A DNA stretch of 64,000 nucleotides from assembly GCA_964252035.1 (NCBI GenBank), contig OZ176202.1, one strand, 5' to 3'. Below are positions 31,281-48,171 of this stretch, one piece after another. The notes below the pieces were generated by a model. That model ran no database searches, was not told where the DNA came from, and was given only the letters and a program-made list of their open reading frames with translations. Position 1 is the stretch's first letter; the number at the start of each line of letters is the position of its first letter. Made by a program: the position numbers and the translations under genes. Source of the DNA: Podarcis erhardii. Lineage: Eukaryota.

Positions 31281-31689
31281 GTGTCCAAGGAAATTCATCC
31301 CACTTTACCAGTCCTAAGGAACCTACAATGGCTCCCAGTATGTTTCCGAGCACAGTTCAAAGTGTTGGTGTTGACCTTTAAAACCCTAAACAGCATTTGC
31401 CCTATAAAGGAGCATCACCACTCCCGTTGTCCAGCCCAGACAACGAGTGGTCCAGGTCCGAGGGCCTTCCAGCGGTTCCCTCATTGCTAGAAGTGAAGTT
31501 ACAGGGAACCAGGTAGTGGGTCCTCTCAGTAGTGGCATCCACCCTGTGAAATTCCAACCCCCCCCCCCAATCAGATGTCAAGGAGATAAAGATACAACTC
31601 TGAAGGCAACCCTGTATAGTTTTTAATGTTTGATGCTTTATTATGTTTTATATCAGTTGGAAGCTGCCCAGAGTGGCTGGGGCAAGCCG

Positions 31690-31690
<1 letters not shown>
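31281..31690 (+). mobile_element. L2-type LINE 3' end (second subfamily), followed by (GTT)n
   Basis: LQWLPVCFRAQFKVLVLTFKTL motif. Confidence 0.75.
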
Positions 31691-31721
<31 letters not shown>

Positions 31722-31809
31722 ACCAAAATCCAATGAGGCATATTCAGTGGAGAGATAGAGACTCTATTTGTCGCATGTGCCCCCCACCCCCATTTTGTTC
31801 TGCTGAATG

Positions 31810-32000
31810 TGGAACAGAGAGGCCCGGGCTGAAATCTCTCATTAGCTATGAAGATGAGTCAGTGACCTTGGTTCAATTGCTGTCACTCAGCTTAACCTAC
31901 TTCACAGATTTCTGGTTAGAATAAAGTGAGATAAACCTTTATGTATGCCATTCAGAGATGCTCTAAAGAAAGGCTGGGATACAAATGAAATAAATAAATA
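31810..32000 (+). mobile_element. Old MIR/Squam3-like SINE
   Basis: GTGACCTTGG...CTCAGCTTAACCTACTTCACAG core, AAAT tail. Confidence 0.62.
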
Positions 32001-33304
32001 CTAAGCACTGTCTAGCCCTCACCCATAGCTTGAAAATAAAGCACTTTTTTTTTCTTGAGCCCAGTGAATTCTGTGGGAAGCCTTCATGCCATAGAGTGAA
32101 CAAATGTAAGCAATCAGTAAGCTCGGGGAACAATTTTCTGGAAGCAGGATATAAATAAATATTGCCCCTCCCCTGAATTATTTTACTCAGTAGTAAAGTT
32201 TATACCCTGTTCCACATTGCTTTAGAATAGTAGAACAGCCTCCTTAGAGAATATTACCAGCATTTGTAGGCTAGTCAGACGGTGCTGCTGACTTGTAATT
32301 CATTGCTTCTAAATGACCCTGTTGCGAAAATAAACTCTTGCTTTAATCTGCAAAAGGTCACACTTGTAGCTGGGTGTAGCTTTATACATTAGCGTTTCCT
32401 TTCTCTGCGATGCCCAATGAACTGGTAAAAAAACGTGAACCAAACGCACAGAGCCAGTCAGTCATGTAGCAAGGATTCCAAAGGATACCAGCTGTATCTC
32501 ATCTTGCTAATCTGCAGGCTTATTTTTTAAAATATAGAAAGGGGGAAGAATTTTAAGAGTTAAATCACACAACCCTTTTTATTTTTAAAGCAAGTGGATT
32601 CCTTGTTGCGTTGTTGGGAATGATAAATTGATACCACATGTTGATCCCAGACAAAAAAGCCTCTGTATTCCAGTAGGTGCTTGCAGCTGGTGTCTGAATT
32701 AATGGGCAAGCTCCATAAGGTAAACACGGTATGGAAGAGACTAAAACAGACACGAGCTAGGAGGAGTGGGGAAATTCTTGCAGAAGGGGATCTGCCAATT
32801 TTCCTTGACCAAAGAAGATGGGGGAAAGCACGAAACACATTCAAATAGCATACTGAAGTAGGAAGGCCAGTTAGTGGTCCTGGTCAAGCTAATGAGACAA
32901 TATAAACTGCTCTGAGAACAACCTCCAGGGCCCATAGAGAACTATGAGGAATACTGAGGTGGCCAAGTCCACTCTGGGATGTTAGGGGTCAATTTGAACC
33001 CAGAATGCCTTGTCAAAAACACTGACCTCTCAACCATATTGGCTCTCCTATTTGTGAATATGAGAATTGTGAAGAAAAAAATCCACAATTGTTAGAATTA
33101 TGTTTTTAAGAAAAGAAATAAAGACATATTCTCCTAAATTCAGAGATTCTTCTATGCATGTGGGAGTTTCAGTGCATACATACGTAGAAACACTATGCGC
33201 CCATCAGAGTATATTCACAGGGCTCTGGGTTTTGTTTATTTATTTATTTAAATTTATTAAATTTATATACCACCCTTCTTCTGAGGCCCACCCTGCCCTT
33301 TAAG

Positions 33305-34576
33305 CAGGGTTCCTCAAACTTTTTAAACGGGGCCAGTTCACTGTCCCTAAGACACTGTTGGGGGCCAGACTATAGTTTGAAAAAAATATGAACGAATTCC
33401 TATGCACACTGCACATATTTTATCAGTGGTGCACAAAGAACAGGAACAACAATACAATATTTAAAATGAAGAACGATTTTAATCAACATAAACTTGTAAG
33501 TATTTCAACGGGAAGTACTGGGCCTGCTTTTGGCTAATGAGAGATGGTCAATATCCGGTTCCATATTTGTCACTGCTAGTCATAGCAAGTGATGCAAGTG
33601 TTCATCAGTTAATCTGAATCTGGTTGGAGATTTCAGGTGTTTCATTCGGGGGAAAGTCTGTTCACAGACATAAGTGGTGCCAAAGATGGTTGCAATTTTG
33701 AGTGCATGGTTCCTGAGATTAATATATGTCTCAGAGGGGAGAGATGCATAGAAATTAGTGAGGCTGCTTGATTTGAATGTGTCTTTCAGAGAGTCGCAGT
33801 TCTGTAGTTCGGCCAATTCCATTTGGTAAATAGGATCAACAATTTCAATGTCAGCAGAAAATGGGTTCCAGAAAAGCTGTATGTCCTGTTCATGGTGATG
33901 AAGTCCTTTAAATCTAATTTGAAACTCCTTTTGCAACATTTCTAGTAAATCCACACATGTTTTGTTTGGGAATGCAACTGCTGGTTTTTCCGCCAACAGG
34001 TTTTGAGTTGTGGGGAGATGGCAGAAGTTTCCTCCTCCACTTGTTTAATGAGGAGGTCTAATTTTACTTGAAATGCTTTCACGTGTGAATGCATATCACA
34101 GATGAGCTTCCCCTTTCCTTGAAATTGAACATTGAAACTGTTGAGTAGCTCTGTTACATCTGTCAGAAAGGCAGGGTGCCATTTCCATTCTGCCAAGGCT
34201 GCCGCATGGGACCCGTGCGCATGTTAAGGAGGCAACCAGCCGGTGAGGTGCTGCTCTGGCGAGCATGGAGCCAGCCAGAGGGGAAGGAGGGGAAGGGCTG
34301 GCGTGGAAGGGGTTCCTTCGCTGCCACCCTGCCCTCCGGCGGCTTAAAGGGGCAGTGCACCGTTATCCAGCAGCCAGCACCAGCAGTAACAACCGCATTA
34401 CCAGGGCTTTGTTACATGCACACACTTTTGCCTCAGGGCTCTTCCCGCCCAGCCGCTTCTGAGCCTTGGGCCTTGCCAAGGGGGGTGGGGTCTGGAGTGA
34501 TCCGCTGCGCAGGCAGGCCGGGTTCAGGAGCCTGGTGGCCAGATCTGGCCCGCAGACCATAGTTTGAGGACCCTTG
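33305..34576 (-). mobile_element. Internally deleted hAT (Charlie-group, OC1/OposCharlie1-like) DNA transposon, 1272 bp
   Basis: 16-bp TIRs CAGGGTTCCTCAAACT / CAAGGGTCCTCAAACT (14/16), perfect 8-bp TSD CCTTTAAG (33297-33304 and 34577-34584); family name from recall. Confidence 0.88.
33505..34196 (-). pseudogene. hAT transposase C-terminal remnant (GTF2IRD2/EPM2AIP1-like)
   Basis: AFLTDVTELLN...FGTTYVCEQTFPRMK...RLTDEHL dimerisation-domain motifs; frameshift near 34030; premature TGA at 33582-33580. Confidence 0.88.
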
Positions 34577-34790
34577 CCTTTAAGGCTTTATGACTCAAAA
34601 CCAGCACTTTGAACTGGACCTGGAAACTAATTGGCAGCCAATGCAGTTGGGCCAGGATTTACATTATATGCTCAAACTGTCTTGCATCAATGAGCAACCT
34701 GGCCGCTAAATTGAGCACCAACTGAAGTTTCCAAACTGTCTTAAGAGGCTGCCCCATGTATAATGCATTGCAGTAATCTTAACCCAGAGG
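34577..34790 (-). mobile_element. L2 fragment split by the hAT insertion (tail at 33225-33304)
   Basis: Continuous L2 sequence (HWLPI region) on both sides of the 8-bp TSD. Confidence 0.8.
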
Positions 34791-35069: not shown

Positions 35070-35831
35070 TGTCAGGGCTGCCCGAGGTCCCAGCTCACAA
35101 AGGACCAACGCCAGGTCATTGTTATATGCAAAAGTCTTTATTGAAGTTCAGTTTCTATTTCAAAGCCGTGGCGCGCAGCTCTACGTCTTAAACTCTAGAC
35201 CGCCGAAGCTCCGTCTGAATCTCCTCCCCCCAGACACCAGTTTAAGACTCTAGCCTTGCTCCACCTCTTCCTTCGCTCCTTTCTCCTCTGGGTCCGCCTG
35301 TCCGCTGGGGTCTCGCCCTTTCTGGACTCTTCTGATGCTGAGTCCCCTGAGTCATCCCCCACCCTCCGGCGGGCTTTAGGACCTGGTTCCCCCTCCGGGC
35401 TACCTGCTGTGCCGCGCGTCTGTACATTTGAACTTGGCGCGCGCGCCCAGCCGGCAACCTTCCTCCTGACCGTTCCCTCGCTCTCCGATGGAGGCGTGGT
35501 CAGCCCTAACTCATCTTCTCTCCCTCCTGGAGGAGACGCTGGCCCTGACACCTGAGATTCTTCCCCCCCACTACACTCTGGTGGGGAAGCTGGTCCTGAT
35601 CTCCAGCAGCTGCTCTGGGAATCCCCGCTGGCCCCTTGCTTCTGGTGCGTCCCCCCTGGAACCCCCCTTGCCCTGGCCATCGGCGCCCCCCTCTGGGAAT
35701 CTTCTGATTCGCTGGAAAGGCTCATGGAATCTCTCGGGCCACTGTCATCTTCTCCCATGCTGCCCTCAGATTCTTCCCCTTCGCTCTCCATTCCCTCTCC
35801 TCCCTGTGCCTCTGCTCCTGAGCCCCTGACA
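35070..35831 (-). mobile_element. Solo LTR (762 bp) of a second Gypsy-type family
   Basis: TGTCAGGG...CCCTGACA inverted termini, perfect 5-bp TSD CATGT (35065-35069 and 35832-35836), AATAAA on - strand at 35142-35137, reading frame open from 35830 to the stop at 35195. Confidence 0.9.
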
Positions 35832-36731
35832 CATGTGGACCAGATTTCTTGTATACCCAGATGTCTTCCATTTACTTAATGTCATCCATCCCATTTATGT
35901 CAGTGGTAGGGATGCCAATGTGAATCATTCACTTTATCCCTGTGGTACATAAAAAACAGTTTTTTATGCATATAAAAACCTGTATTTTGTGAGCTCTTGA
36001 TGCCTTTTGTTTTCAAAATATGCTGGCAAAAGATGTATATTTGTCTTTAAAACCTAGATACAACCAATATTCACCCATATTTCAAAAAGAACTTGTTAAT
36101 CTCCCCATTTAAGCATTCAGCATCACAAAGGGATTTTACCAGATTTTAAAACTTTAATCAAAAGTGCTACTCTAGGCTATACTTTTAAGTATAGACTCTA
36201 CAGGTATTTTGCTCAGTTCAGCTATTGTAAACTTGAGGCACTTCTCATAGAGGTGGTGGGATGGCTTTTCAACTCTTGGTTCATTTCCTCTTGCGTTGAG
36301 TCTATCCACCCTAACAAATGTCCCAAATGGCATAGAAATTTCTGGGCAGTGGGTATGTTTTCCCTTTTAGTTGAGGCAGTTATAGGCATATCAATGGGGC
36401 TTTCACTTCCTAAATTTTTCACTCAAAGCTTGTCAACATGTTGGAACTTTTTACAGGTTGACTAGTTCTTTATAACGTAACAGTTGGCTGTGCTGTTGTA
36501 TATAATGGCAAGCATTATTTGGAAAATTATGAGGCTTTTCTGGGCACCAGAGTATTAGGCCAGTCTCTTCTTTCAGATGTCGCTGAAGGAGTGTCACTAA
36601 AGGAAAAGAGGAGGAAATACATAACGAATCCATAAACTGTAGAGTGAGTAACTATAGCTAGTGCTATTTGTAGAAGGCCATTAGGTTAAAACATGTCAAA
36701 CATGTTTTACGTCCTGATCATGAAGACCTTG

Positions 36732-37127
36732 TGTGATGGGATAGTGAGCTGCTTGTGCGTAAAAGCTTGATCCCTCTGGGGTTTGGCTGGTCATCCAAAC
36801 CGATGCACTAACGGAGCCCCCAAAGCATGACTCCGTCAGTCGCTGGTAGTATCTGACAGTGGGCGTCTACGGAATTTACGCCAACATAAAAGCTCTTTGA
36901 CAGACATGCGCTTTCGAGACTCTCTGCGTGACAGTTTCCGGCGAAGGGTGGGCGTTCCCAACGGGGGTCCCGTTACCTCTCCACTACTCTCACTGGAAGC
37001 ATCCCAGAGCCTCCCCTCCGCTGTGACTCCTGCACTCCCCCTGCTGGTTCCCTCTTCTACTGCAGATTCTCTCCTATTCTCCTGTAGCCTGTCCACCACC
37101 TGTCTCTCCGATGGCAGTTCCCTGACA
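36732..37127 (-). repeat. 3' LTR (396 bp); U3 and the start of R are protein coding
   Basis: Direct repeat of 41825-42220; contains the last 96 codons and the stop of pol. Confidence 0.97.
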
Positions 37128-40100
37128 TCCACCTCCCCCCCAGGGCCCCCTTCACCCCCTCCCGCCTCCTCTCCCACTGGCGGTGAGGGCGGAAAGCCCC
37201 TGAAGGAACTCTCCTCGTCGTCCGAGGATTCTAACACTTCCGGCCACGGCGTACCGTCTCTCTCCCCGTCTTCCTCTTCTTCGTCGGAGTCGGCTTCTTC
37301 ACCCACCCCTGACTCTGGGAACCCTTCAAACTCTCCTTCCTCATCGGTGGTCCCAAAGTGTTCCCTTCTAAATCGAGCCACGGGTTGCGGTTTTCTTGGG
37401 AAACGCTGATGAAATGTTTCTATTAAAATCTCGTCATTGACTACCTCTGCTGGTACCCAAGTGTTTTCCGACTCTGCTTCCCCCTCCCATTCTACCAGAT
37501 ATTCCACCTGATTTCCCTTCCACCTGGAATCAATGATTCCTGCCACGTTCATGTCGCGCTCTCTCTCTTCTATCACGGGCGTTTGGGTGGCCTCTCTCTC
37601 ACGCTCCCCCCACTCGCGTCCCTCTCGGTACGGCGACAGTAATGACCTGTGAAATACTGGGTGTAATTTCATGTGACTGGGCAGCCTGAGTTTGAATGCC
37701 ACTGGGTTGACCTGCTGTATGACCTCAAAGGGTCCCAATCTTTTGGGCCTCAATTTCTTACTCCCGCCCTTGAACGGTAGCCCTTGGGTGGACAACCACA
37801 CCCGGTCCCCCACCCTTATAGTTTCACCTTCCCTCCTATTTCTGTCTGCTTGCTTCTTATATTCTTCCTTGGCTTTCTCTAAGTTAAGTTGAAGCTGACG
37901 GTGGATCGCCTCCATCTCTTCAAAAAAATATTCCGCCGCCGGCACGCTCCACCTCTCCCCTCCCTCTCCTGGGAATGCCCGGGGGTGACACCCATAATTT
38001 GCCAGGAAGGGACTCATCCCTGTGGACACGTTCTCCGCGTTGTTGTAGGCAAATTCTGCTAGAGGTAACTTATCCACCCAATCATTTTCTCTGTCCTTTA
38101 CATAACACCTCAAGTATTGTTGTAAAACCCCATTTGCCCTTTCCGCTTGCCCATTGGTTTCTGGGTGCCGGGCAGTTGAGAAATTGAGTTCTACGTGCAG
38201 TAAGCTCATAAGTTTCCTCCAGAACCTGGAAGTAAATTGTTTCCCTCTGTCGCTGACCACCCTCAAGGGGGCGCCATGCAACTTGAAAATATGTTCTACA
38301 AACAACTTGGCGGTTTCCTCCGCTGTGACTGCATGTGAACAAGCTATAAAATGACACATCTTGGTTAATTGATCTACCACCACCATGACAGCTGTTTTGC
38401 CTTTGGATTTTGGCAGGTCCGTCATAAAATCTATGGATACTGCCTCCCATGGCCTTTCAGGCGTGGGTAAGGGTTGTAATAGCCCCGCTGGCGCCACCCT
38501 CTCTCCTTTCGCTCGCTGGCACCTGTCGCAACCCCTGACATATTCCCGTACGTCCTCCCTCACCTTGGGCCACCAAAACTCCCTGGTAACCAACCACATG
38601 GTTTTGTGCTGTCCAAAATGTCCCGCTGTGGGGCTGTCATGCAACTGCTTGAGTACTCTGCCCCTCAGTTCCCCGTCGGGTATGTACAGTGCCCCTTTGT
38701 AATACAACGCCCCGTTCTTTTCTTCGAACCCCCCTGTGTTCTCCTCTGTCCTCCGGAGCTCTCTGAGTTTCTCTTGGGCGTATTCATCGTTCTCCGTACC
38801 CTCTATCAGTTCCCTCTGCCCCACCAATGCCGCCCCACACACCCAGCGGTCTTCAGGGATTACATGCCTTGCCTCAGGCGCTCCCTCCCCCTCTAAGTAC
38901 TCAGGTTTCCTGGAAAGAGCGTCCGCCCTCACGTTCTCGGAGCCGGGCACGTAACGAATCTCAAAGTGGAATTTGGAGAACTCCTGGGCCCATCTCACTT
39001 GTCTCTGGTTCAGCACTCGGGCTGTTCTCCAGTATTCCAGATTTTTGTGGTCAGTTCGGACTTGAACCTTGTGCTGCGCCCCAATCAGCAAGTGCCGCCA
39101 TTTCCGGAATGCTTCATGAATGGCGAGCAGTTCTCGGTCGTACACTGTGTAGTTCCTCTCTGATTTGTTCAACTTCCGCGAGAAGAATGCACACGGTCTC
39201 CATTCAGACGTATCTTTTCCCGGCTGGAGAAGAACGGCCCCCACCGCTCGGTCTGACGCGTCAGTCTCCACTCTCATTGGTTGTTGTAGATCCACGTGCA
39301 AGAGTTGCTCTTCCGACGCAAACGCCTGCTTTAAGCGTTCGAACGCTTGTTGCGCTTCTCCCGTCCAAACAAATTTCTTTTTGCTACTAAGACAATCCGT
39401 GATGGGCGCTGTTAAATGGGCAAAGTTTTTGATGAACTTCCTATAGAAGTTTCCGAAGCCCAGGAACCTTTGCACGTCCTTCTTGGTCTTTGGTGTTTTC
39501 CATTCCAGTACCGCTTGAACCTTGCTGGGATCCATGGCCAATCCCTTGTCAGACAACCGGTACCCCAGGAATTCCACCTCCTTGGTATGAAACTGACACT
39601 TCTCCAGTTTCACCCACAGCCGGTTTTCTCGCAGCTTGCTCAGTACCTCTCTTACATCTCGCACATGCTGCTCCTCATTGTCTGAGTACACCAGAACGTC
39701 ATCTAAGAACGCTACGCAGTTCTTGTAGAGCAGTGGCCCCAGGACGTGATTCATGAATGATTGAAAACAGGCGGAGCCCCCTTGTAATCCGAAAGGCATA
39801 ACGGTGTACTCAAAGGCCCCCAAGGGGGTGAACATAGTGGTCTTCCACTCATCCCCCTTTCTCACACGTATCAAGTTATATGCCCCCCTAAGGTCCAGCT
39901 TGGTAAAAATTTTCCCTTTTCTCACCCGTGTTAGAATGTCATCAATTCTGGGCATAGGGAAAGTCACTGGTTCTGACACTGCATTTAGGGCCCTGAAATC
40001 ACATACAAGCCTGGGCTTGCCTGTGTTTTTTTTGTCCACAAAGAACACTGGGCTGCCCCCCACCGCTCGTGACTCTCTGATGAAACCTCGCTTGAGATTC

Positions 40101-40819
40101 TTGTCAATGAACTCCCTTAACTCCTGCATCTCACTGTCTGACATTGCATACAGCTTGCCCACTGGCAATTGTGCTCCTGGGAGTAAGGTAATTTGACAAT
40201 CAAAGGGTCTGTGCGGGGGCAGTTTATCTGCTTCTTTTTCGCTGAATACGTCAAGCAAGTCAGCGTATTGTGGTGGCACCCTCCCTTTGTCCATCACTTC
40301 CATCCCTGCTAGAGTGCCCCTGGCGCCTGCCTGAGCCTCTCCCTCCTTGCAGTGTTCTAGGCAATGTGCTGATCCAAAGGAAACCACTCTCTGATGCCAG
40401 CCTACTAGCGGATCGTGTAGCGCCAGCCAGCTCATACCCAAGATAATAGGAGCTCCTCCCAAGGTGGCTACGTTAAACGCTATCAGTTCGGTGTGTCGTG
40501 CCACCCTCATTATCATTGGTACAGTCTGTTGGCTCACTTCTCCTCCCAACAGCTCCCTCCCATCAATCGTGGTAACCTGCAAAGGCTTACTCAATGGGAT
40601 AGTCTGTATTTGGTGTGCAGCTGCAAACTCTTTGCTCATGAAATTACATGAGCTACCTGAATCCAATAGCGCCTTTATCTTCAGTGGGTGTCCGTTTGCC
40701 AGTTCCAGCAACACCTCTATCACAAGCGCTGGTCTTGGAGGTTCCGGCGTGGGCACATTCATTACTCCCTGGCCTGGCTGCTGTGCCCTGATGTTGGCAA
40801 CCAGGCGTTGGCTTTTACT
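36836..40819 (-). CDS. Pol: aspartic protease, RT, RNase H, integrase, chromodomain, acidic tail and LTR-encoded basic tail (in the -1 frame relative to gag)
   Basis: LLDSG (40655-40663); RT FLDD (39698-39709); RNase H DAS/ELLA/TDH; integrase H-x6-H...CDRC, DFMTDL/DRG/ERAN and GPF; chromodomain 37398-37552; no stop up to 36836. Start uncertain (frameshift near 40813-40819, or AUG at 40762). Confidence 0.96.
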   Translation of the reverse strand, partial: SKSQRLVANIRAQQPGQGVMNVPTPEPPRPALVIEVLLELANGHPLKIKALLDSGSSCNFMSKEFAAAHQIQTIPLSKPLQVTTIDGRELLGGEVSQQTVPMIMRVARHTELIAFNVATLGGAPIILGMSWLALHDPLVGWHQRVVSFGSAHCLEHCKEGEAQAGARGTLAGMEVMDKGRVPPQYADLLDVFSEKEADKLPPHRPFDCQITLLPGAQLPVGKLYAMSDSEMQELREFIDKNLKRGFIRESRAVGGSPVFFVDKKNTGKPRLVCDFRALNAVSEPVTFPMPRIDDILTRVRKGKIFTKLDLRGAYNLIRVRKGDEWKTTMFTPLGAFEYTVMPFGLQGGSACFQSFMNHVLGPLLYKNCVAFLDDVLVYSDNEEQHVRDVREVLSKLRENRLWVKLEKCQFHTKEVEFLGYRLSDKGLAMDPSKVQAVLEWKTPKTKKDVQRFLGFGNFYRKFIKNFAHLTAPITDCLSSKKKFVWTGEAQQAFERLKQAFASEEQLLHVDLQQPMRVETDASDRAVGAVLLQPGKDTSEWRPCAFFSRKLNKSERNYTVYDRELLAIHEAFRKWRHLLIGAQHKVQVRTDHKNLEYWRTARVLNQRQVRWAQEFSKFHFEIRYVPGSENVRADALSRKPEYLEGEGAPEARHVIPEDRWVCGAALVGQRELIEGTENDEYAQEKLRELRRTEENTGGFEEKNGALYYKGALYIPDGELRGRVLKQLHDSPTAGHFGQHKTMWLVTREFWWPKVREDVREYVRGCDRCQRAKGERVAPAGLLQPLPTPERPWEAVSIDFMTDLPKSKGKTAVMVVVDQLTKMCHFIACSHAVTAEETAKLFVEHIFKLHGAPLRVVSDRGKQFTSRFWRKLMSLLHVELNFSTARHPETNGQAERANGVLQQYLRCYVKDRENDWVDKLPLAEFAYNNAENVSTGMSPFLANYGCHPRAFPGEGGERWSVPAAEYFFEEMEAIHRQLQLNLEKAKEEYKKQADRNRREGETIRVGDRVWLSTQGLPFKGGSKKLRPKRLGPFEVIQQVNPVAFKLRLPSHMKLHPVFHRSLLSPYREGREWGEREREATQTPVIEERERDMNVAGIIDSRWKGNQVEYLVEWEGEAESENTWVPAEVVNDEILIETFHQRFPRKPQPVARFRREHFGTTDEEGEFEGFPESGVGEEADSDEEEEDGERDGTPWPEVLESSDDEESSFRGFPPSPPVGEEAGGGEGGPGGEVDVRELPSERQVVDRLQENRRESAVEEGTSRGSAGVTAEGRLWDASSESSGEVTGPPLGTPTLRRKLSRRESRKRMSVKELLCWRKFRRRPLSDTTSD
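37128..37141 (-). promoter_or_regulatory. Polypurine tract GGGGGGGAGGTGGA
   Basis: Purine-rich run abutting the 3' LTR TG; translated as part of pol (GGEVD). Confidence 0.85.
40751..40819 (-). promoter_or_regulatory. Gag-pol recoding signal: H-type pseudoknot with upstream A-GUA-AAA and embedded UAAUG
   Basis: Stem 1 40806-40797 with 40781-40772 (10 bp, one GU); stem 2 40788-40782 with 40757-40751 (7 bp); 6-nt spacer after the heptamer 40819-40813. Confidence 0.75.
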
Positions 40820-41778
40820 GGCTCCGTGATTTCTTCTTCCTCCTTCCCCCCAACAGTTCCCGCCATCCCTTGCCATTCCTTCCTTTGCGGACAGACTCTG
40901 GCAAAGTGACCTGGCTGTTGGCAGAGATAGCATCTCTTGCCGCTCTTTCCCTCCTTCTTCCGCCCTTCACTGGTGTTTGAAACTGCGCGCGCGCGCGCTG
41001 TTCCAAGTTCCATCGGCTCTGCTGGCGGGAAAGGCTGCTCCGGAATCTCTGGAATGCGGAAGTCCTTCCAACGTTCCCCCTTTCCTTCCCGCTTTTCCAT
41101 AGCTCTAGCTTCCTGGCGTGCGCCAATGGACAGCGCTGATTTAGTCAGCTGATCCATAGACTCCGCCCTAGGCGCCCGGGAAAGTTCATCTTTCACTGCC
41201 GGAGAGAGACCTTCTTCAAACAGCATTTGAATAGGTTCACTAGCAAGGTCCCACCCAAGTCTATGAATCAGCATGGTGAACTCAGTCCAGTACTCACGTA
41301 CAGATCGGCTCCCCTGTTTACACGCCATTAACTGCCTGCGCACCACTCCCTGCTCGATCTCGCTGGAAAACATCAAGTCCATGGCGCGGAAAAACTTCAT
41401 TGTGTCCTTTAAGATTTCATTATTGGCTGCCATCAGGGGCCGAACCCAGTCCCTCGCCCCTCCCTCTAGATGGCCAATCACGTACGCCACTCTAGAGTTC
41501 TCGTCGGGGAAGTCATCAAACAGTAGATTGAGAGCATATTGCATCTCTGTCCTAAAGGCTTGATAGTTCCGGGGATCCCCCCCAAATTTCTGCACCAGTC
41601 CAGGCACCCGTCTGGCAAGTGGGGTGGTTTTCCCCTTATCTGCATCTTGAGCCCTCCTCTCCTCGAGCCTCGCCGTTTGCAGTGCCAGCTGGACCTCCAA
41701 CGCCCTGTACCTTTGTTCCAGGCTTGGATCTGCGCCAGCTCCCGCTCCTGCTCCTCCGGTTCCGGATGGTTCGCTCAT
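40762..41778 (-). CDS. Gag (338 aa; PEG10/sushi-like capsid region, CCHC zinc knuckle)
   Basis: ATG at 41778 (gcatcATG); coiled-coil N-terminus, FGGDPRNYQAFR capsid-like segment, CYLCQQPGHFARVC knuckle; TAA at 40764-40762. Confidence 0.95.
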   Translation of the reverse strand: MSEPSGTGGAGAGAGADPSLEQRYRALEVQLALQTARLEERRAQDADKGKTTPLARRVPGLVQKFGGDPRNYQAFRTEMQYALNLLFDDFPDENSRVAYVIGHLEGGARDWVRPLMAANNEILKDTMKFFRAMDLMFSSEIEQGVVRRQLMACKQGSRSVREYWTEFTMLIHRLGWDLASEPIQMLFEEGLSPAVKDELSRAPRAESMDQLTKSALSIGARQEARAMEKREGKGERWKDFRIPEIPEQPFPPAEPMELGTARARAVSNTSEGRKKEGKSGKRCYLCQQPGHFARVCPQRKEWQGMAGTVGGKEEEEITEPVKANAWLPTSGHSSQARE

Positions 41779-41811
41779 GATGCCTTCTGCTTGCACAAGC
41801 TGCTTTCAAAG

Positions 41812-41821
41812 ACTGTCAGAT
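41812..41821 (-). promoter_or_regulatory. Self-priming type primer-binding site (ATCTGACAGT)
   Basis: No TGG/tRNA-type PBS after the 5' LTR; perfect 10-nt complement ACTGTCAGAT lies in the 5' LTR at 41953-41944. Confidence 0.75.
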
Positions 41822-41824
41822 TGC

Positions 41825-42220
41825 TGTGATGGGATAGTGAGCTGCTTGTGCGTAAAAGCTTGATCCCTCTGGGGTTTGGCTGGTCATCCAAACCGATGCA
41901 CTAACGGAGCCCCCAAAGCATGACTCCGTCAGTCGCTGGTAGTATCTGACAGTGGGCGTCTACGGAATTTACGCCAACATAAAAGCTCTTTGACAGACAT
42001 GCGCTTTCGAGACTCTCTGCGTGACAGTTTCCGGCGAAGGGTGGGCGTTCCCAACGGGGGTCCCGTTACCTCTCCACTACTCTCACTGGAAGCATCCCAG
42101 AGCCTCCCCTCCGCTGTGACTCCTGCACTCCCCCTGCTGGTTCCCTCTTCTACTGCAGATTCTCTCCTATTCTCCTGTAGCCTGTCCACCACCTGTCTCT
42201 CCGATGGCAGTTCCCTGACA
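41825..42220 (-). repeat. 5' LTR (396 bp)
   Basis: TGTCAGGG...CCCATCACA on the - strand; no difference from 36732-37127 by eye. Confidence 0.97.
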
Positions 42221-42575
42221 CCTTGATTTGGACATAAGCTTGTTACAAAACTGGTTTTTGAATACATGTGCTTGGGATCACAGCGTATCTTTACTAACTA
42301 TCTTGGCTTCTAGCAATGTACTGATGCATCAGCTTACTAAAATAAACATACGATTATCTCAGTAAAGTTTTTCAATGGGAGATTTTATTTAATGAAGGAA
42401 AGCGGGTTCTCCTTCGTTAATGAACCCACAGAATCGGAGGGGAGAGTCAGGTCAAAAAGTCATATTAAAGTTGTTCAAAAATTCACATTGAAACACACAA
42501 ACCAACAATGACATCAGTTCTAAATACACTTTCCCAGGAACATATCTGACCCAAAGAATCATGATAACCCTACAG

Positions 42576-42747
42576 CAGGTCTAGCTAACCTGTGACCCTC
42601 CAGGTGTTGTTGGACTACAACACCCAGCAGCCTCAGCCAGCATGGTCACTCCAGATGCCAGCATCCGTGTCCACTGGCCATGCTGGGTGGGGCTGATGGG
42701 AATTGTAGTCCAACAACATCTGGAGGGTCACAGGTCGGTCAGCCCTG
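42576..42747. mobile_element. Palindromic hAT-type MITE ~200 bp upstream of the FOXO3 acceptor
   Basis: ACCTGTGACCCTCCAG...GGACTACAA / TTGTAGTCC...CTGGAGGGTCACAGGT arms. Confidence 0.82.
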
Positions 42748-42943
42748 CTCTTTAGGAATGGACCACATTAATTCAGTGTTCCTAAGCATCAGTAAATGCT
42801 GATAGTAGATGTAGTAGTAGAATTAGTAATTTTTCTTATTATTTTCCATGTTATTTTTAGATTGTTGAGATGGACAAAGGAAATTTGCCCCTATTCTAAA
42901 TTTCCTTGTTTTTTGTTTGTTTTGTTTTTTGTGGCTCTTGCAG

Positions 42944-44347
42944 AACTCGATCAGGCACAACTTGTCTCTTCATAGTCGATTCATCAGGGTACAGAATGAA
43001 GGAACTGGGAAAAGTTCGTGGTGGATGATCAACCCTGACGGTGGGAAAGGTGGGAAAGCGCCACGGAGACGTGCTGTTTCGATGGATAACAGCAACAAGT
43101 ACACCAAGAGCCGAGGACGAGCAGCTAAGAAGAAGGCAGCACTACAAGCTGCACAGGAAACAAGCGAAGACAGCCCCTCCCAGCTCTCCAAGTGGCCAGG
43201 TAGCCCAACTTCACGCAGCAGCGATGAGCTAGACGCCTGGACAGATTTCCGGTCTCGTACAAATTCAAATGCCAGTACAATAAGTGGCCGCTTGTCACCA
43301 ATACTGGCCAGCACTGAGCTAGATGAGGTTCAGGATGATGATGCTCCACTTTCCCCTATGCTGTATAGTAGTCCACCCAGCATGTCTCCCTCAGTAAATA
43401 AACCTGGCAATGTTGAGCTGCCAAGGTTGACTGATATGGCGGGCACCATGAACTTGAACGATGGTCTGACAGACAATCTTATGGATGATCTTTTGGACAA
43501 TATAACCCTCCCCTCTTCCCAGCAGTCGCCCACAGGGGGACTCATGCAAAGAAGCTCAAGTTTTCCATACGGCTCCAAAGGTTCAGGTCTTGGTTCACCA
43601 TCGAGTAGTTTCAACAACGCTGTGTTTGGACCATCATCACTGAATTCCCTCCGTCAGTCTCCCATGCAAACCATCCAAGAGAACAAGCAAGCTACATTTT
43701 CTTCCATTTCGCATTACAATAACCAAACACTGCAGGATCTGCTGGCTTCGGATTCGCATAGCCACAGCGATGTCATGATGACCCAGTCTGATCCACTCAT
43801 GTCACAAGCTAGCACAGCTGTGTCTGCCCATAACGTACGCAGGAATATTATGCTCCGGAATGATCCCATGATGTCGTTTGCTGCCCAGCCAAGTCAGGGG
43901 AGTTTGGTCAACCAGAATCTGCTCCACCACCAGCACCAGTCCCAGAATTCCTCTCTCGGTGGCAGTCGTGCCTTGTCGAATTCCGTCGGTACTATGGGCT
44001 TAAGTGACACAAGCAACGTTGGGTCGACAAAACACCAGCAACAGTCACCTGCCAACCAGTCTATGCAATCGCTTTCTGACTCACTCTCAGGCTCTTCTTT
44101 GTACTCCAGCAGTGTGAGCCTTCCAGTCATGGGGCATGATAAATTCCCCAGTGATTTGGACCTGGATATTTTCAACGGGAGCTTGGAATGTGATATGGAG
44201 TCCATTATCCGCAGCGAACTCATGGATGCAGATGGGTTGGATTTTAACTTTGATTCCCTCATCTCAGCCCAGAATGTTGTCACTCTGAATGTGGGAAACT
44301 TCACTGGTGCTAAGCAAGCTTCGTCACAGAGTTGGGTTCCAGGCTAA
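42944..44347 (+). CDS. FOXO3: Forkhead box O3, last coding exon (C-terminal part of forkhead domain through the transactivation domain)
   Basis: Polypyrimidine tract + CAG acceptor at 42941-42943, phase 0, then NSIRHNLSLHSRF...; Akt motifs RRRAVSMD and RSRTNSNA, QRSSSF, C-terminal DLDLDIFNGSLECDMESIIRSELMD and SQSWVPG end match FOXO3 rather than FOXO1/4/6. The first 9 residues of the ORF-track protein (42917-42943) are intronic. Confidence 0.98.
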   Translation, partial: NSIRHNLSLHSRFIRVQNEGTGKSSWWMINPDGGKGGKAPRRRAVSMDNSNKYTKSRGRAAKKKAALQAAQETSEDSPSQLSKWPGSPTSRSSDELDAWTDFRSRTNSNASTISGRLSPILASTELDEVQDDDAPLSPMLYSSPPSMSPSVNKPGNVELPRLTDMAGTMNLNDGLTDNLMDDLLDNITLPSSQQSPTGGLMQRSSSFPYGSKGSGLGSPSSSFNNAVFGPSSLNSLRQSPMQTIQENKQATFSSISHYNNQTLQDLLASDSHSHSDVMMTQSDPLMSQASTAVSAHNVRRNIMLRNDPMMSFAAQPSQGSLVNQNLLHHQHQSQNSSLGGSRALSNSVGTMGLSDTSNVGSTKHQQQSPANQSMQSLSDSLSGSSLYSSSVSLPVMGHDKFPSDLDLDIFNGSLECDMESIIRSELMDADGLDFNFDSLISAQNVVTLNVGNFTGAKQASSQSWVPG

Positions 44348-46875: not shown

Positions 46876-47079
46876 TAGTGGTACCTCAGTTTACGAACTT
46901 AATCTGTTCCGGAAGTCTGTTCTTAAACCAAAACCATTCTTAAACCGAGGCGCACTTTCCCTAATGAGGGCTTCCCCCGCCGGTGCCCTTCCACCATTCC
47001 GTTCATAGACTGATGTTTTGCGGAGTTCGTAAACTGAATAGTTCATAAACAGGGCTGTTCTTAAACCGAGGTACCACTG
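46876..47079. mobile_element. Tigger-like MITE (CAGTGGTACC TIR, TA TSD)
   Basis: TA-TAGTGGTACCTCAGTTT...AAACCGAGGTACCACTG-TA. Confidence 0.85.
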
Positions 47080-47945
47080 TATACCTAAACCATTTATCTT
47101 TTAACATCCACTTCACAAATTAACAGTGACTTCTTATGTGCTAGATTGTAAAATATTATTGGAAAATAGATTGTCCTGAATAGGCACCCATTTTTTTAAA
47201 AAAAAATCTGAGCCAGAAGAGAGCCATATTGGCTTTGAAAATAAATAAATAAATAAATTATGTGTTGGAACCTGAGTTGTGCAGAGAGGAACAAACTGGA
47301 TGATCCCACAGGCAGTAGAAAGAAGGTAGTTTTTGCTGATACTCACCCCAGCCTCCTATACCCCCCCCCCAATATCTGCTCTGGGGGGTTAGAGGAGTGC
47401 TCCCCCCACCAAGGGAATGAGTGAATGAGTTCTTCTATTAATGCAGGGATAACTGGATCCAACTATCTTACCTTCAGGTCACCAGACACAAATATTGCTG
47501 TTTTACCTTAACTTGAAAATTCCTTGTAAGCCTTGGGAGTAATTTGTAACAGGTTGTCGCCCAAAGCATTGTTTTATTTCCTTGCTTGTTTAAACGTATC
47601 CTATCAGCTGATGGCAACTCAGATGTTAAAATACAATTCTTGATTCAGACACATCTGTGACCTACAAAGAATAAAGCTGAAATCCTGTTCATGGGTAATG
47701 GTATTGTATTAAGTAGGGCTGCTCTGGAGTAGCAGTTAGCAACAATATTATACCTGTACAACATGATCCATAAATTATATATATAGTTAGAGATGTGAAG
47801 GCCTGGGAAAAGATGAGGGCATTAACACACACAATTTGCTGGGTTTTTCAGGGCCTTGGCATCTCTAGATAAACCAGCTTAAATCATTTTTGGATCACAC
47901 AGTGATTATTGTACTTCATTCATTGCTTCACTCCACACATCAATA

Positions 47946-48171
47946 CAGTGGTACCTGGGGTTACATACACTTCAGGTTACAGACTCCGCTAACTCAGAAA
48001 TATTACCTCGGGTTAAGAACTTTGCTTCAGGATGAGAACAGAAATCATGCTTCATCGGTGCAGCGGCAGCAGGAAGCCCCATTAGCTAAAGTGGTGCTTC
48101 AGGTTAAGAACAGTTTCAGGTTAAGAACGGATCTCCGGAACAAATTAACTACTTAACCTGAGGTACCACTG
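47946..48171. mobile_element. Tigger-like MITE (CAGTGGTACC TIR)
   Basis: TA-CAGTGGTACCTGGGGTTA...TAACCTGAGGTACCACTG. Confidence 0.85.

Follow-up and report, generated by a model that had tools for sequence, protein, structure and literature searches.

A degenerate putative slip site and a predicted pseudoknot between gag and pol in a Ty3/gypsy retrotransposon that amplified recently

The element and its gag-pol junction

The gag-pol junction described here belongs to a recently amplified, many-copy chromodomain Ty3/gypsy retrotransposon. The element is 5.5 kb long and intact, and lies on the minus strand of the window, the whole 64-kb stretch of DNA analysed (Table 1), with a 5-bp target-site duplication flanking both LTR ends. 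The identity of its LTRs suggests that the insertion is very recent and perhaps polymorphic, and the 70-nt junction has 218 exact copies in the genome (control, 0). The domains of pol are, in order, protease, reverse transcriptase, RNase H, integrase, an SH3-like domain, a chromodomain, and an acidic tail (Pfam). The pol frame extends about 97 codons into the 3' LTR (36836-37127, minus strand), past the long acidic tail that follows the chromodomain. A tRNA-type primer-binding site, starting with TGG, is absent after the 5' LTR, and the 10 nt at 41812-41821 are complementary to an LTR stretch at 41944-41953 on the minus strand. Self-priming is a trait of Tf1/sushi-group elements.

The element (36732-42220) is antisense and sits about 0.7 kb before a large FOXO-family exon on the plus strand (about 42945-44347, Pfam), which we take to belong to FOXO3. 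A GC-rich, purine-skewed stretch at 35195-35875, with a 226-aa low-complexity frame on the minus strand that has no Pfam match, possibly represents an LTR from a different gypsy family. A 154-aa frame at 33580-34044 (minus strand) presumably resembles the C-terminal part of a hAT-type transposase. MITE-like inverted repeats of 68-75 nt occur at 42574-42749, 46877-48170, and 31323-34646, one pair being just 26 nt apart.

Table 1. Features of the element and of its gag-pol junction (positions in the window)
Feature	Position	Strand	Remarks
5' LTR, TG...CA, 396 nt	41825..42220	-	100% identity to 3' LTR
Primer-binding-site position, predicted self-priming	41812..41821	-	Complementarity over 10 nt with LTR positions 268-277
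gag ORF, 338 aa, capsid and CCHC knuckle	40762..41778	-	Pfam Retrotrans_gag, Ty3_capsid, zf-CCHC
Upstream G_GGA_AAG heptamer, gag frame, before zinc knuckle	40945..40951	-	Rival entry site
Degenerate slip site A_GUA_AAA (A_AAA tetramer)	40813..40819	-	Aligned to sister-family G_GGA_AAC
Spacer, 6 nt	40807..40812	-	Invariant in 12 subfamily groups
Predicted H-type pseudoknot	40751..40806	-	Stem 1 40806-40797 with 40781-40772; stem 2 40788-40782 with 40757-40751; loop 3 40771-40758
gag stops UAA UGA with overlapping pol-frame AUG (40762-40760)	40759..40764	-	GUG here in older subfamilies
Pol frame from slip site, 1327 codons	36836..40819	-	ORF and Pfam
Protease DSG	40663-40655	-	
Polypurine tract preceding 3' LTR	37128..37141	-	
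3' LTR, 396 nt	36732..37127	-	Identity to 5' LTR

Pol is read in frame -1 with respect to gag. The initial annotation had placed AGTAAAA (40819-40813), the gag TAA (40764-40762), and a pol-frame ATG (40762-40760) on the minus strand, and all are found there, as is the H-type pseudoknot without a loop 2 that it described 6 nt after the heptamer. The predicted knot has a stem 1 of 10 bp (one G-U), a loop 1 of 8 nt, a stem 2 of 7 bp, and a loop 3 of 14 nt. It is the only such knot in the internal region of the element, and shuffling the 160-nt region 1000 times with dinucleotides preserved never produced one. Overall folding energy is not unusual (z -0.13 and z -0.56) in a single-strand folding program that is unable to form pseudoknots and that recovered stem 1. 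The gag stop, positioned 7 nt past stem 1 and 4 nt ahead of stem 2, is doubled (UAA UGA), which the initial annotation did not mention. The pol-frame AUG of UAAUG has a G at -3 and begins a frame of 1308 aa, as had been reported; its distance to the protease DSG, given as about 30 codons, is 33.

The pseudoknot is beyond chance, and the stop-start overlap is not above it. An AUG overlap with the -1 frame accompanies 37 of the 158 stop triplets of the element, taken in any frame, and UAAUG occurs at 4 of 30 UAA. UAAUG in itself was rejected as evidence of restart because it is common by chance in the element, and the overlap is likely a late and incidental arrival.

The heptamer breaks the X_XXY_YYZ rule, as the initial annotation recognised. 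Its first triplet, AGU, is neither three identical bases nor an exception named in the two review lists consulted; YYY is AAA and Z is not G, in keeping with the rule. The knot is predicted to start within the range of 5-9 nt downstream that is expected of a stimulatory structure. The site also conforms to the Z_ZZN motif, in which a tetramer without re-pairing of the first tRNA is combined with a strong stimulator, here a predicted one.

A graded series of predicted slip sites within the genome

A sister family (137 pattern matches; 29 of 30 fetched loci are elements) carries the canonical G_GGA_AAC/U, to which the present heptamer aligns gap-free, with an identical 6-nt spacer and stem 1. 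Its gag stop is CAA-UAG, and its pol frame has AUA or GUA (I/V) at the overlap position. The initial annotation held that a canonical family consensus without UAAUG would speak against its proposals; this subfamily lacks such a consensus, and the sister family has it. Copies of the canonical-site family crowd one contig, C19 (42 among the 100 listed), a concentration that would fit heterochromatin or a sex chromosome rich in repeats.

A pattern with the heptamer left almost free gave 240 matches, and the 100 listed comprise 95 AGUAAAA, 4 AGCAAAA, and 1 GGUAAAA. Alignment with other copies, which the initial annotation had suggested, establishes AGUAAAA and UAAUG as family-wide in this subfamily, with the 218 exact junctions. 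The G_GUA_AAA set (216 matches; 100 of 100 listed) ends gag with CAG-UGA, which reads GUG in the pol frame. Among subfamilies, the GUG/AUG position holds 68 GUG and 1 AUG of 69. The pattern CAA-GUA-AAA has 244 matches, and the 30 fetched divide into 18 with UAAUG, 11 with GUG, and 1 deleted. UAG-UGA has 35 further matches; 17 of the 19 readable fetched copies are A_GUA_AAA, none with AUG. Finally, A_GCA_AAA, in which position 3 is changed, marks a small young clade (7 GCA matches). All 6 A_GCA_AAA copies have UAAUG, and the four examined fully have common private changes and LTRs 99.7-100% identical.

Trees rooted with the sister family as outgroup place these states in the order G_GGA_AAC, G_GUA_AAA, A_GUA_AAA with CAG-UGA, then UAG-UGA, then UAA-UGA. 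The pol trees (first 1.35 kb; 77 of 88, 60 of 62, and 44 of 44 rows) and the gag tree (60 of 62 rows) agree on this order, the 30 near-identical youngest loci having been thinned to a few. UAAUG copies (stem 0.012-0.017 changes per site) nest within A_GUA_AAA copies that have no AUG (stem 0.087-0.12), which nest in turn within G_GUA_AAA. The UAAUG subfamilies are the youngest large burst. An A at heptamer position 1 does not define one clade (AU test p 1e-70, for a group chosen after earlier trees had been viewed). G changed to A more than once, and two copies that group with A-bearing ones have G again; some of these strays may reflect changes confined to one copy, or recombination.

Contigs of another organism (two runs of one sample) have GUG in all of their depth and AUG in none, with UAG in 96%, depth not being the same as copy number. 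A protein search returned 5 matches, four of which are Gag relatives of 81-86% identity with VKA at the site and an end one codon later (EQ). The fifth, a Podarcis lilfordi composite (calcium-dependent domain-containing 4C-like), joins Gag and Pol pieces to a C2 domain and is likely a gene-prediction chimera.

The A_AAA tetramer, the 6-nt spacer, and the pseudoknot are preserved across the series while position 1 varies. From heptamer position 2 to stem 1, 0 of 12 columns vary among the 12 groups, compared with 16 of the 28 columns immediately upstream (Fisher p 0.0009). No copy with a base other than A at the third position of the GUA/GCA codon was found beside the 240, 216, and 244 matches of the main patterns. 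Invariance of a wobble base is weak evidence, as 30-44% of comparable sites are invariant, and single-site invariance, which does not reach significance by itself (32 of the 88 four-fold sites in gag never vary), was rejected as proof of a slip site. Stem 2 has shifted register by 2 nt (6 bp in the sister family, 6-7 bp in this clade), and one stem-1 pair runs through the series C-G, U-G, U-A; pair covariation is not above the shuffle control (244/500). In seven older groups, 35 of 36 copies have a -1-frame stop two codons before the heptamer. The -1 frame is therefore closed before the heptamer in these groups, and a shift must occur at or after it.

Routes to Pol

Selection on pol was assessed from column-wise differences between groups. 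Comparisons of the CAG-UGA and UAG-UGA groups, which have A_GUA_AAA and no AUG, give pol dN/dS of 0.08 (dS 0.39) and 0.06 (dS 0.37), and that of two CAG-UGA groups gives 0.12. The remaining older steps lie at 0.02-0.10 and the youngest, with 13 changes, at 0.25; private changes in single copies have pN/pS of 0.22-0.59. In 34 of 36 A_GUA_AAA copies without the AUG, the first pol-frame AUG is codon 60, past the DSG at codon 52. The 36 codons ahead of that AUG hold 9 synonymous and 2 non-synonymous differences, which indicates purifying selection. Since pol is under strong purifying selection without an upstream AUG, the AUG is not needed. These copies also amplified recently, with LTR identities of 97.6-99.8% in 11 of 11 UAG-UGA copies and of 94.1-99.8% in 7 of 8 other no-AUG copies, the remaining one being without an LTR pair. 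Recombination with an unsampled close G_GUA_AAA donor may lie behind the pol signal; 30 of the 216 G_GUA_AAA matches were fetched by that pattern.

On these sequence comparisons, Pol is probably made by pseudoknot-stimulated -1 frameshifting on the A_AAA tetramer, the first tRNA re-pairing little (probability roughly 0.7). Pol would be produced as a Gag-Pol fusion through a shift at A_GUA_AAA. The knot would stall the ribosome, and the lysine tRNA would then re-pair from AAA to the overlapping AAA. Because the first triplet is AGU, the first tRNA could not re-pair, and the valine tRNA would find little or no pairing there. Presumably the knot folds and ribosomes shift at this site, at a low but sufficient rate. 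UAAUG would have arisen incidentally when a loop-3 codon, whose pol-frame residue drifts among I, V, and M, underwent two transitions.

Published work bears on such a site. The accessible parts of two sources list GGU, GUU, GGA, CCA, and UCC as tolerated first triplets, AGU not being among them; they describe the Z_ZZN tetramer as the minimal -1 motif and state that the shared A is released by first codons prone to wobble (PMC3542737; PMC5009743). Tetramers in E. coli, according to the portion of a further source available, require a strong stimulator and reach about 1/10 of the best heptamer; among the tetramers that work there A_AAA is the weakest, and it is common in IS1/IS3 elements (PMC4066793). 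In human cells, as far as the available text of one preprint goes, most single slip-site changes reduce frameshifting to background, and at the last position of the SRV-1 site A sharply lowers it and G abolishes it (bioRxiv 10.1101/469692). This fall to background means that efficiency at the present site may be low. A literature search found no natural eukaryotic case of a -1 tetramer like those of bacterial IS elements, and neither A_GUA_AAA nor G_GUA_AAA was described as a site of shifting in the titles and opening lines of abstracts covered, from a library with a minority of the subscription journals.

The likeliest rival holds that free Pol arises by termination-reinitiation, first at a near-cognate GUG (GUGA, then UAGUG) and now at AUG (UAAUG), while the slip site has decayed and is unused. 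GUG-UGA was gained on the same branch on which G_GGA_AAC was lost, all 12 groups retain the G of GUG/AUG, which just 4 single copies lack, as they do the A of GUA, and the series terminates in a textbook UAAUG in the youngest large burst. Non-AUG codons (PMC3542737) and weak context (PMC10275272) are tolerated in reinitiation according to the parts of these sources at hand, and the two oldest G_GUA_AAA groups have UGGGA 85 nt ahead of their stop. The UAAUG and UAG-UGA copies inspected (first six per group), however, have no UGGGA in the 120 nt upstream. The stop lies within the knot, and a terminating ribosome would cover both knot strands, so that the knot could not exist at that moment. The knot straddles the stop, unlike the upstream knot proposed for HvV190S in the accessible part of PMC10275272. 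No downstream structure like that of SART1 is seen (z 0.03). A_AAA and the spacer would be free to vary under reinitiation, yet they are preserved, and the AUA/GUA of the canonical sister family fits an internal hydrophobic residue. Free Pol would also need another route into the particle. Reinitiation as the sole route is thus distinctly unlikely. Likewise unlikely, if marginally less so, is that the lineage has been caught switching from frameshifting to stop-restart: GUG would have come to overlap the gag stop during the decay of the slip site (GUGA), the stop would have shifted next (UAGUG), and an AUG would at last have replaced the GUG (UAAUG), yielding free Pol and a burst that produced hundreds of copies. 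The switch to UAAUG proposed in the initial annotation is not supported in the form given there, since A_GUA_AAA is older than the AUG, with a long branch between them on which purifying selection on pol was strong.

Both routes might operate in the youngest subfamilies, UAAUG-derived free Pol supplementing frameshifted Gag-Pol and aiding the burst. The G at -3 and the presence of UAAUG in every A_GCA_AAA copy, where the site is more degenerate, agree with this, but the recent amplification of the no-AUG subfamilies (seen in all 11 UAG-UGA LTR pairs) and the retention of A_AAA in A_GCA_AAA make it improbable; the AUG, at a dS of about 0.06, is too young for a selection signal. It is very doubtful that in the lineage of this element the upstream G_GGA_AAG has taken over as the shift site, with a Gag-Pol that would lack the zinc knuckle. 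That heptamer fits X_XXY_YYZ, and its -1 frame is open into pol in 27 of 29 UAG-UGA and UAAUG copies, the youngest subfamilies alone. In 35 of 36 older-group copies, A_GUA_AAA included, a shift at this heptamer would run into a stop, and it cannot have served those groups. Moreover, a G at the last position abolished SRV-1 frameshifting in the available text of bioRxiv 10.1101/469692, only short hairpins follow, and retention of the downstream knot would be unexplained. Pol from a spliced or separately started RNA is more remote still, given the purine-rich stretch with no pyrimidine tract before the AUG and the lack of any start before the protease active site in no-AUG subfamilies; nothing was found in its favour, and a search of sequencing runs listed no RNA sample containing the sequence. 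The idea that this copy or subfamily is disabled at the slip site and mobilised in trans is hardly credible. Non-autonomous amplification is common in LTR elements. For a single copy, however, the 218 exact junctions and the same heptamer in older subfamilies dispose of the disabling mutation that the initial annotation had considered; for a subfamily, purifying selection on pol over a dS of about 0.4 with this heptamer would not be shown by an unexpressed pol, and the idea is refuted unless recombination explains the pol signal. Among the three options of that annotation, slippage of a single tRNA at A-AAA is the best supported, by inference from these comparisons.

The junction is real and family-wide, and moderately surprising in that it probably represents a variant form of -1 frameshifting and not a changeover to stop-restart. 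Textbook accounts of -1 frameshifting in eukaryotes describe tandem slippage on X_XXY_YYZ. A natural, ordered series, G_GGA_AAC, G_GUA_AAA, A_GUA_AAA, and A_GCA_AAA, is present here in a single genome on a nearly identical pseudoknot, and pol is under purifying selection along the first three of these steps. Should the site be functional, a programmed shift by a vertebrate ribosome would be possible with only one tRNA re-pairing, which would bear on the importance of the first tRNA and on the minimum of Gag-Pol that a retrotransposon needs, and scans for frameshift sites would miss such cases. UAAUG at an ORF junction is not, alone, evidence of restart.

Comparison with known systems

PEG10, PNMA3/5, and Rtl3 use GGGAAAC, according to the part of PMC11299033 available. 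As in PEG10/PNMA/RTL3 and sushi-type elements, pol is here in the -1 frame, and the site stands at the end of gag with a 6-nt spacer and an H-type knot; in contrast to their G_GGA_AAC, the first triplet is AGU and the last base is A rather than C. The G_GU exceptions of cardiovirus, phage T7 gene 10, and luteoviruses, as described in the accessible literature, are matched by the older G_GUA_AAA subfamilies (216 matches). Other partial first triplets known from those accounts are G_GA, G_UU, U_CC, and C_CA, and the present A_GU is not among them.

Influenza B BM2, caliciviruses, CHV1, HvV190S, and SART1 have UAAUG or AUGA, and the present junction likewise has UAAUG with a long upstream ORF and a -1 downstream ORF. 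It differs from these termination-reinitiation systems in having no UGGGA 40-90 nt upstream of the stop in the UAAUG copies inspected and in that the AUG is absent from working relatives, among which the near-cognate GUG is conserved. The structure is wholly upstream in HvV190S and downstream in SART1, whereas here the knot straddles the stop and the downstream fold has a z of 0.03.

A parallel to the proposed mechanism is found in the bacterial IS1/IS3, IS1222, and Bacillus cdd sites (Z_ZZN tetramer, NNA_AAG hexamer), where, in the portions of the literature available, only the second tRNA (Lys) re-pairs and a strong 3' stimulator assists. In the same accounts, bacterial IS-type sites resemble the present one in a first codon that comes from a four-fold box and ends in A (GUA, GCA). 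The bacterial IS-type shift works best on A_AAG, whereas the putative shift described here would be made by a vertebrate ribosome on A_AAA.
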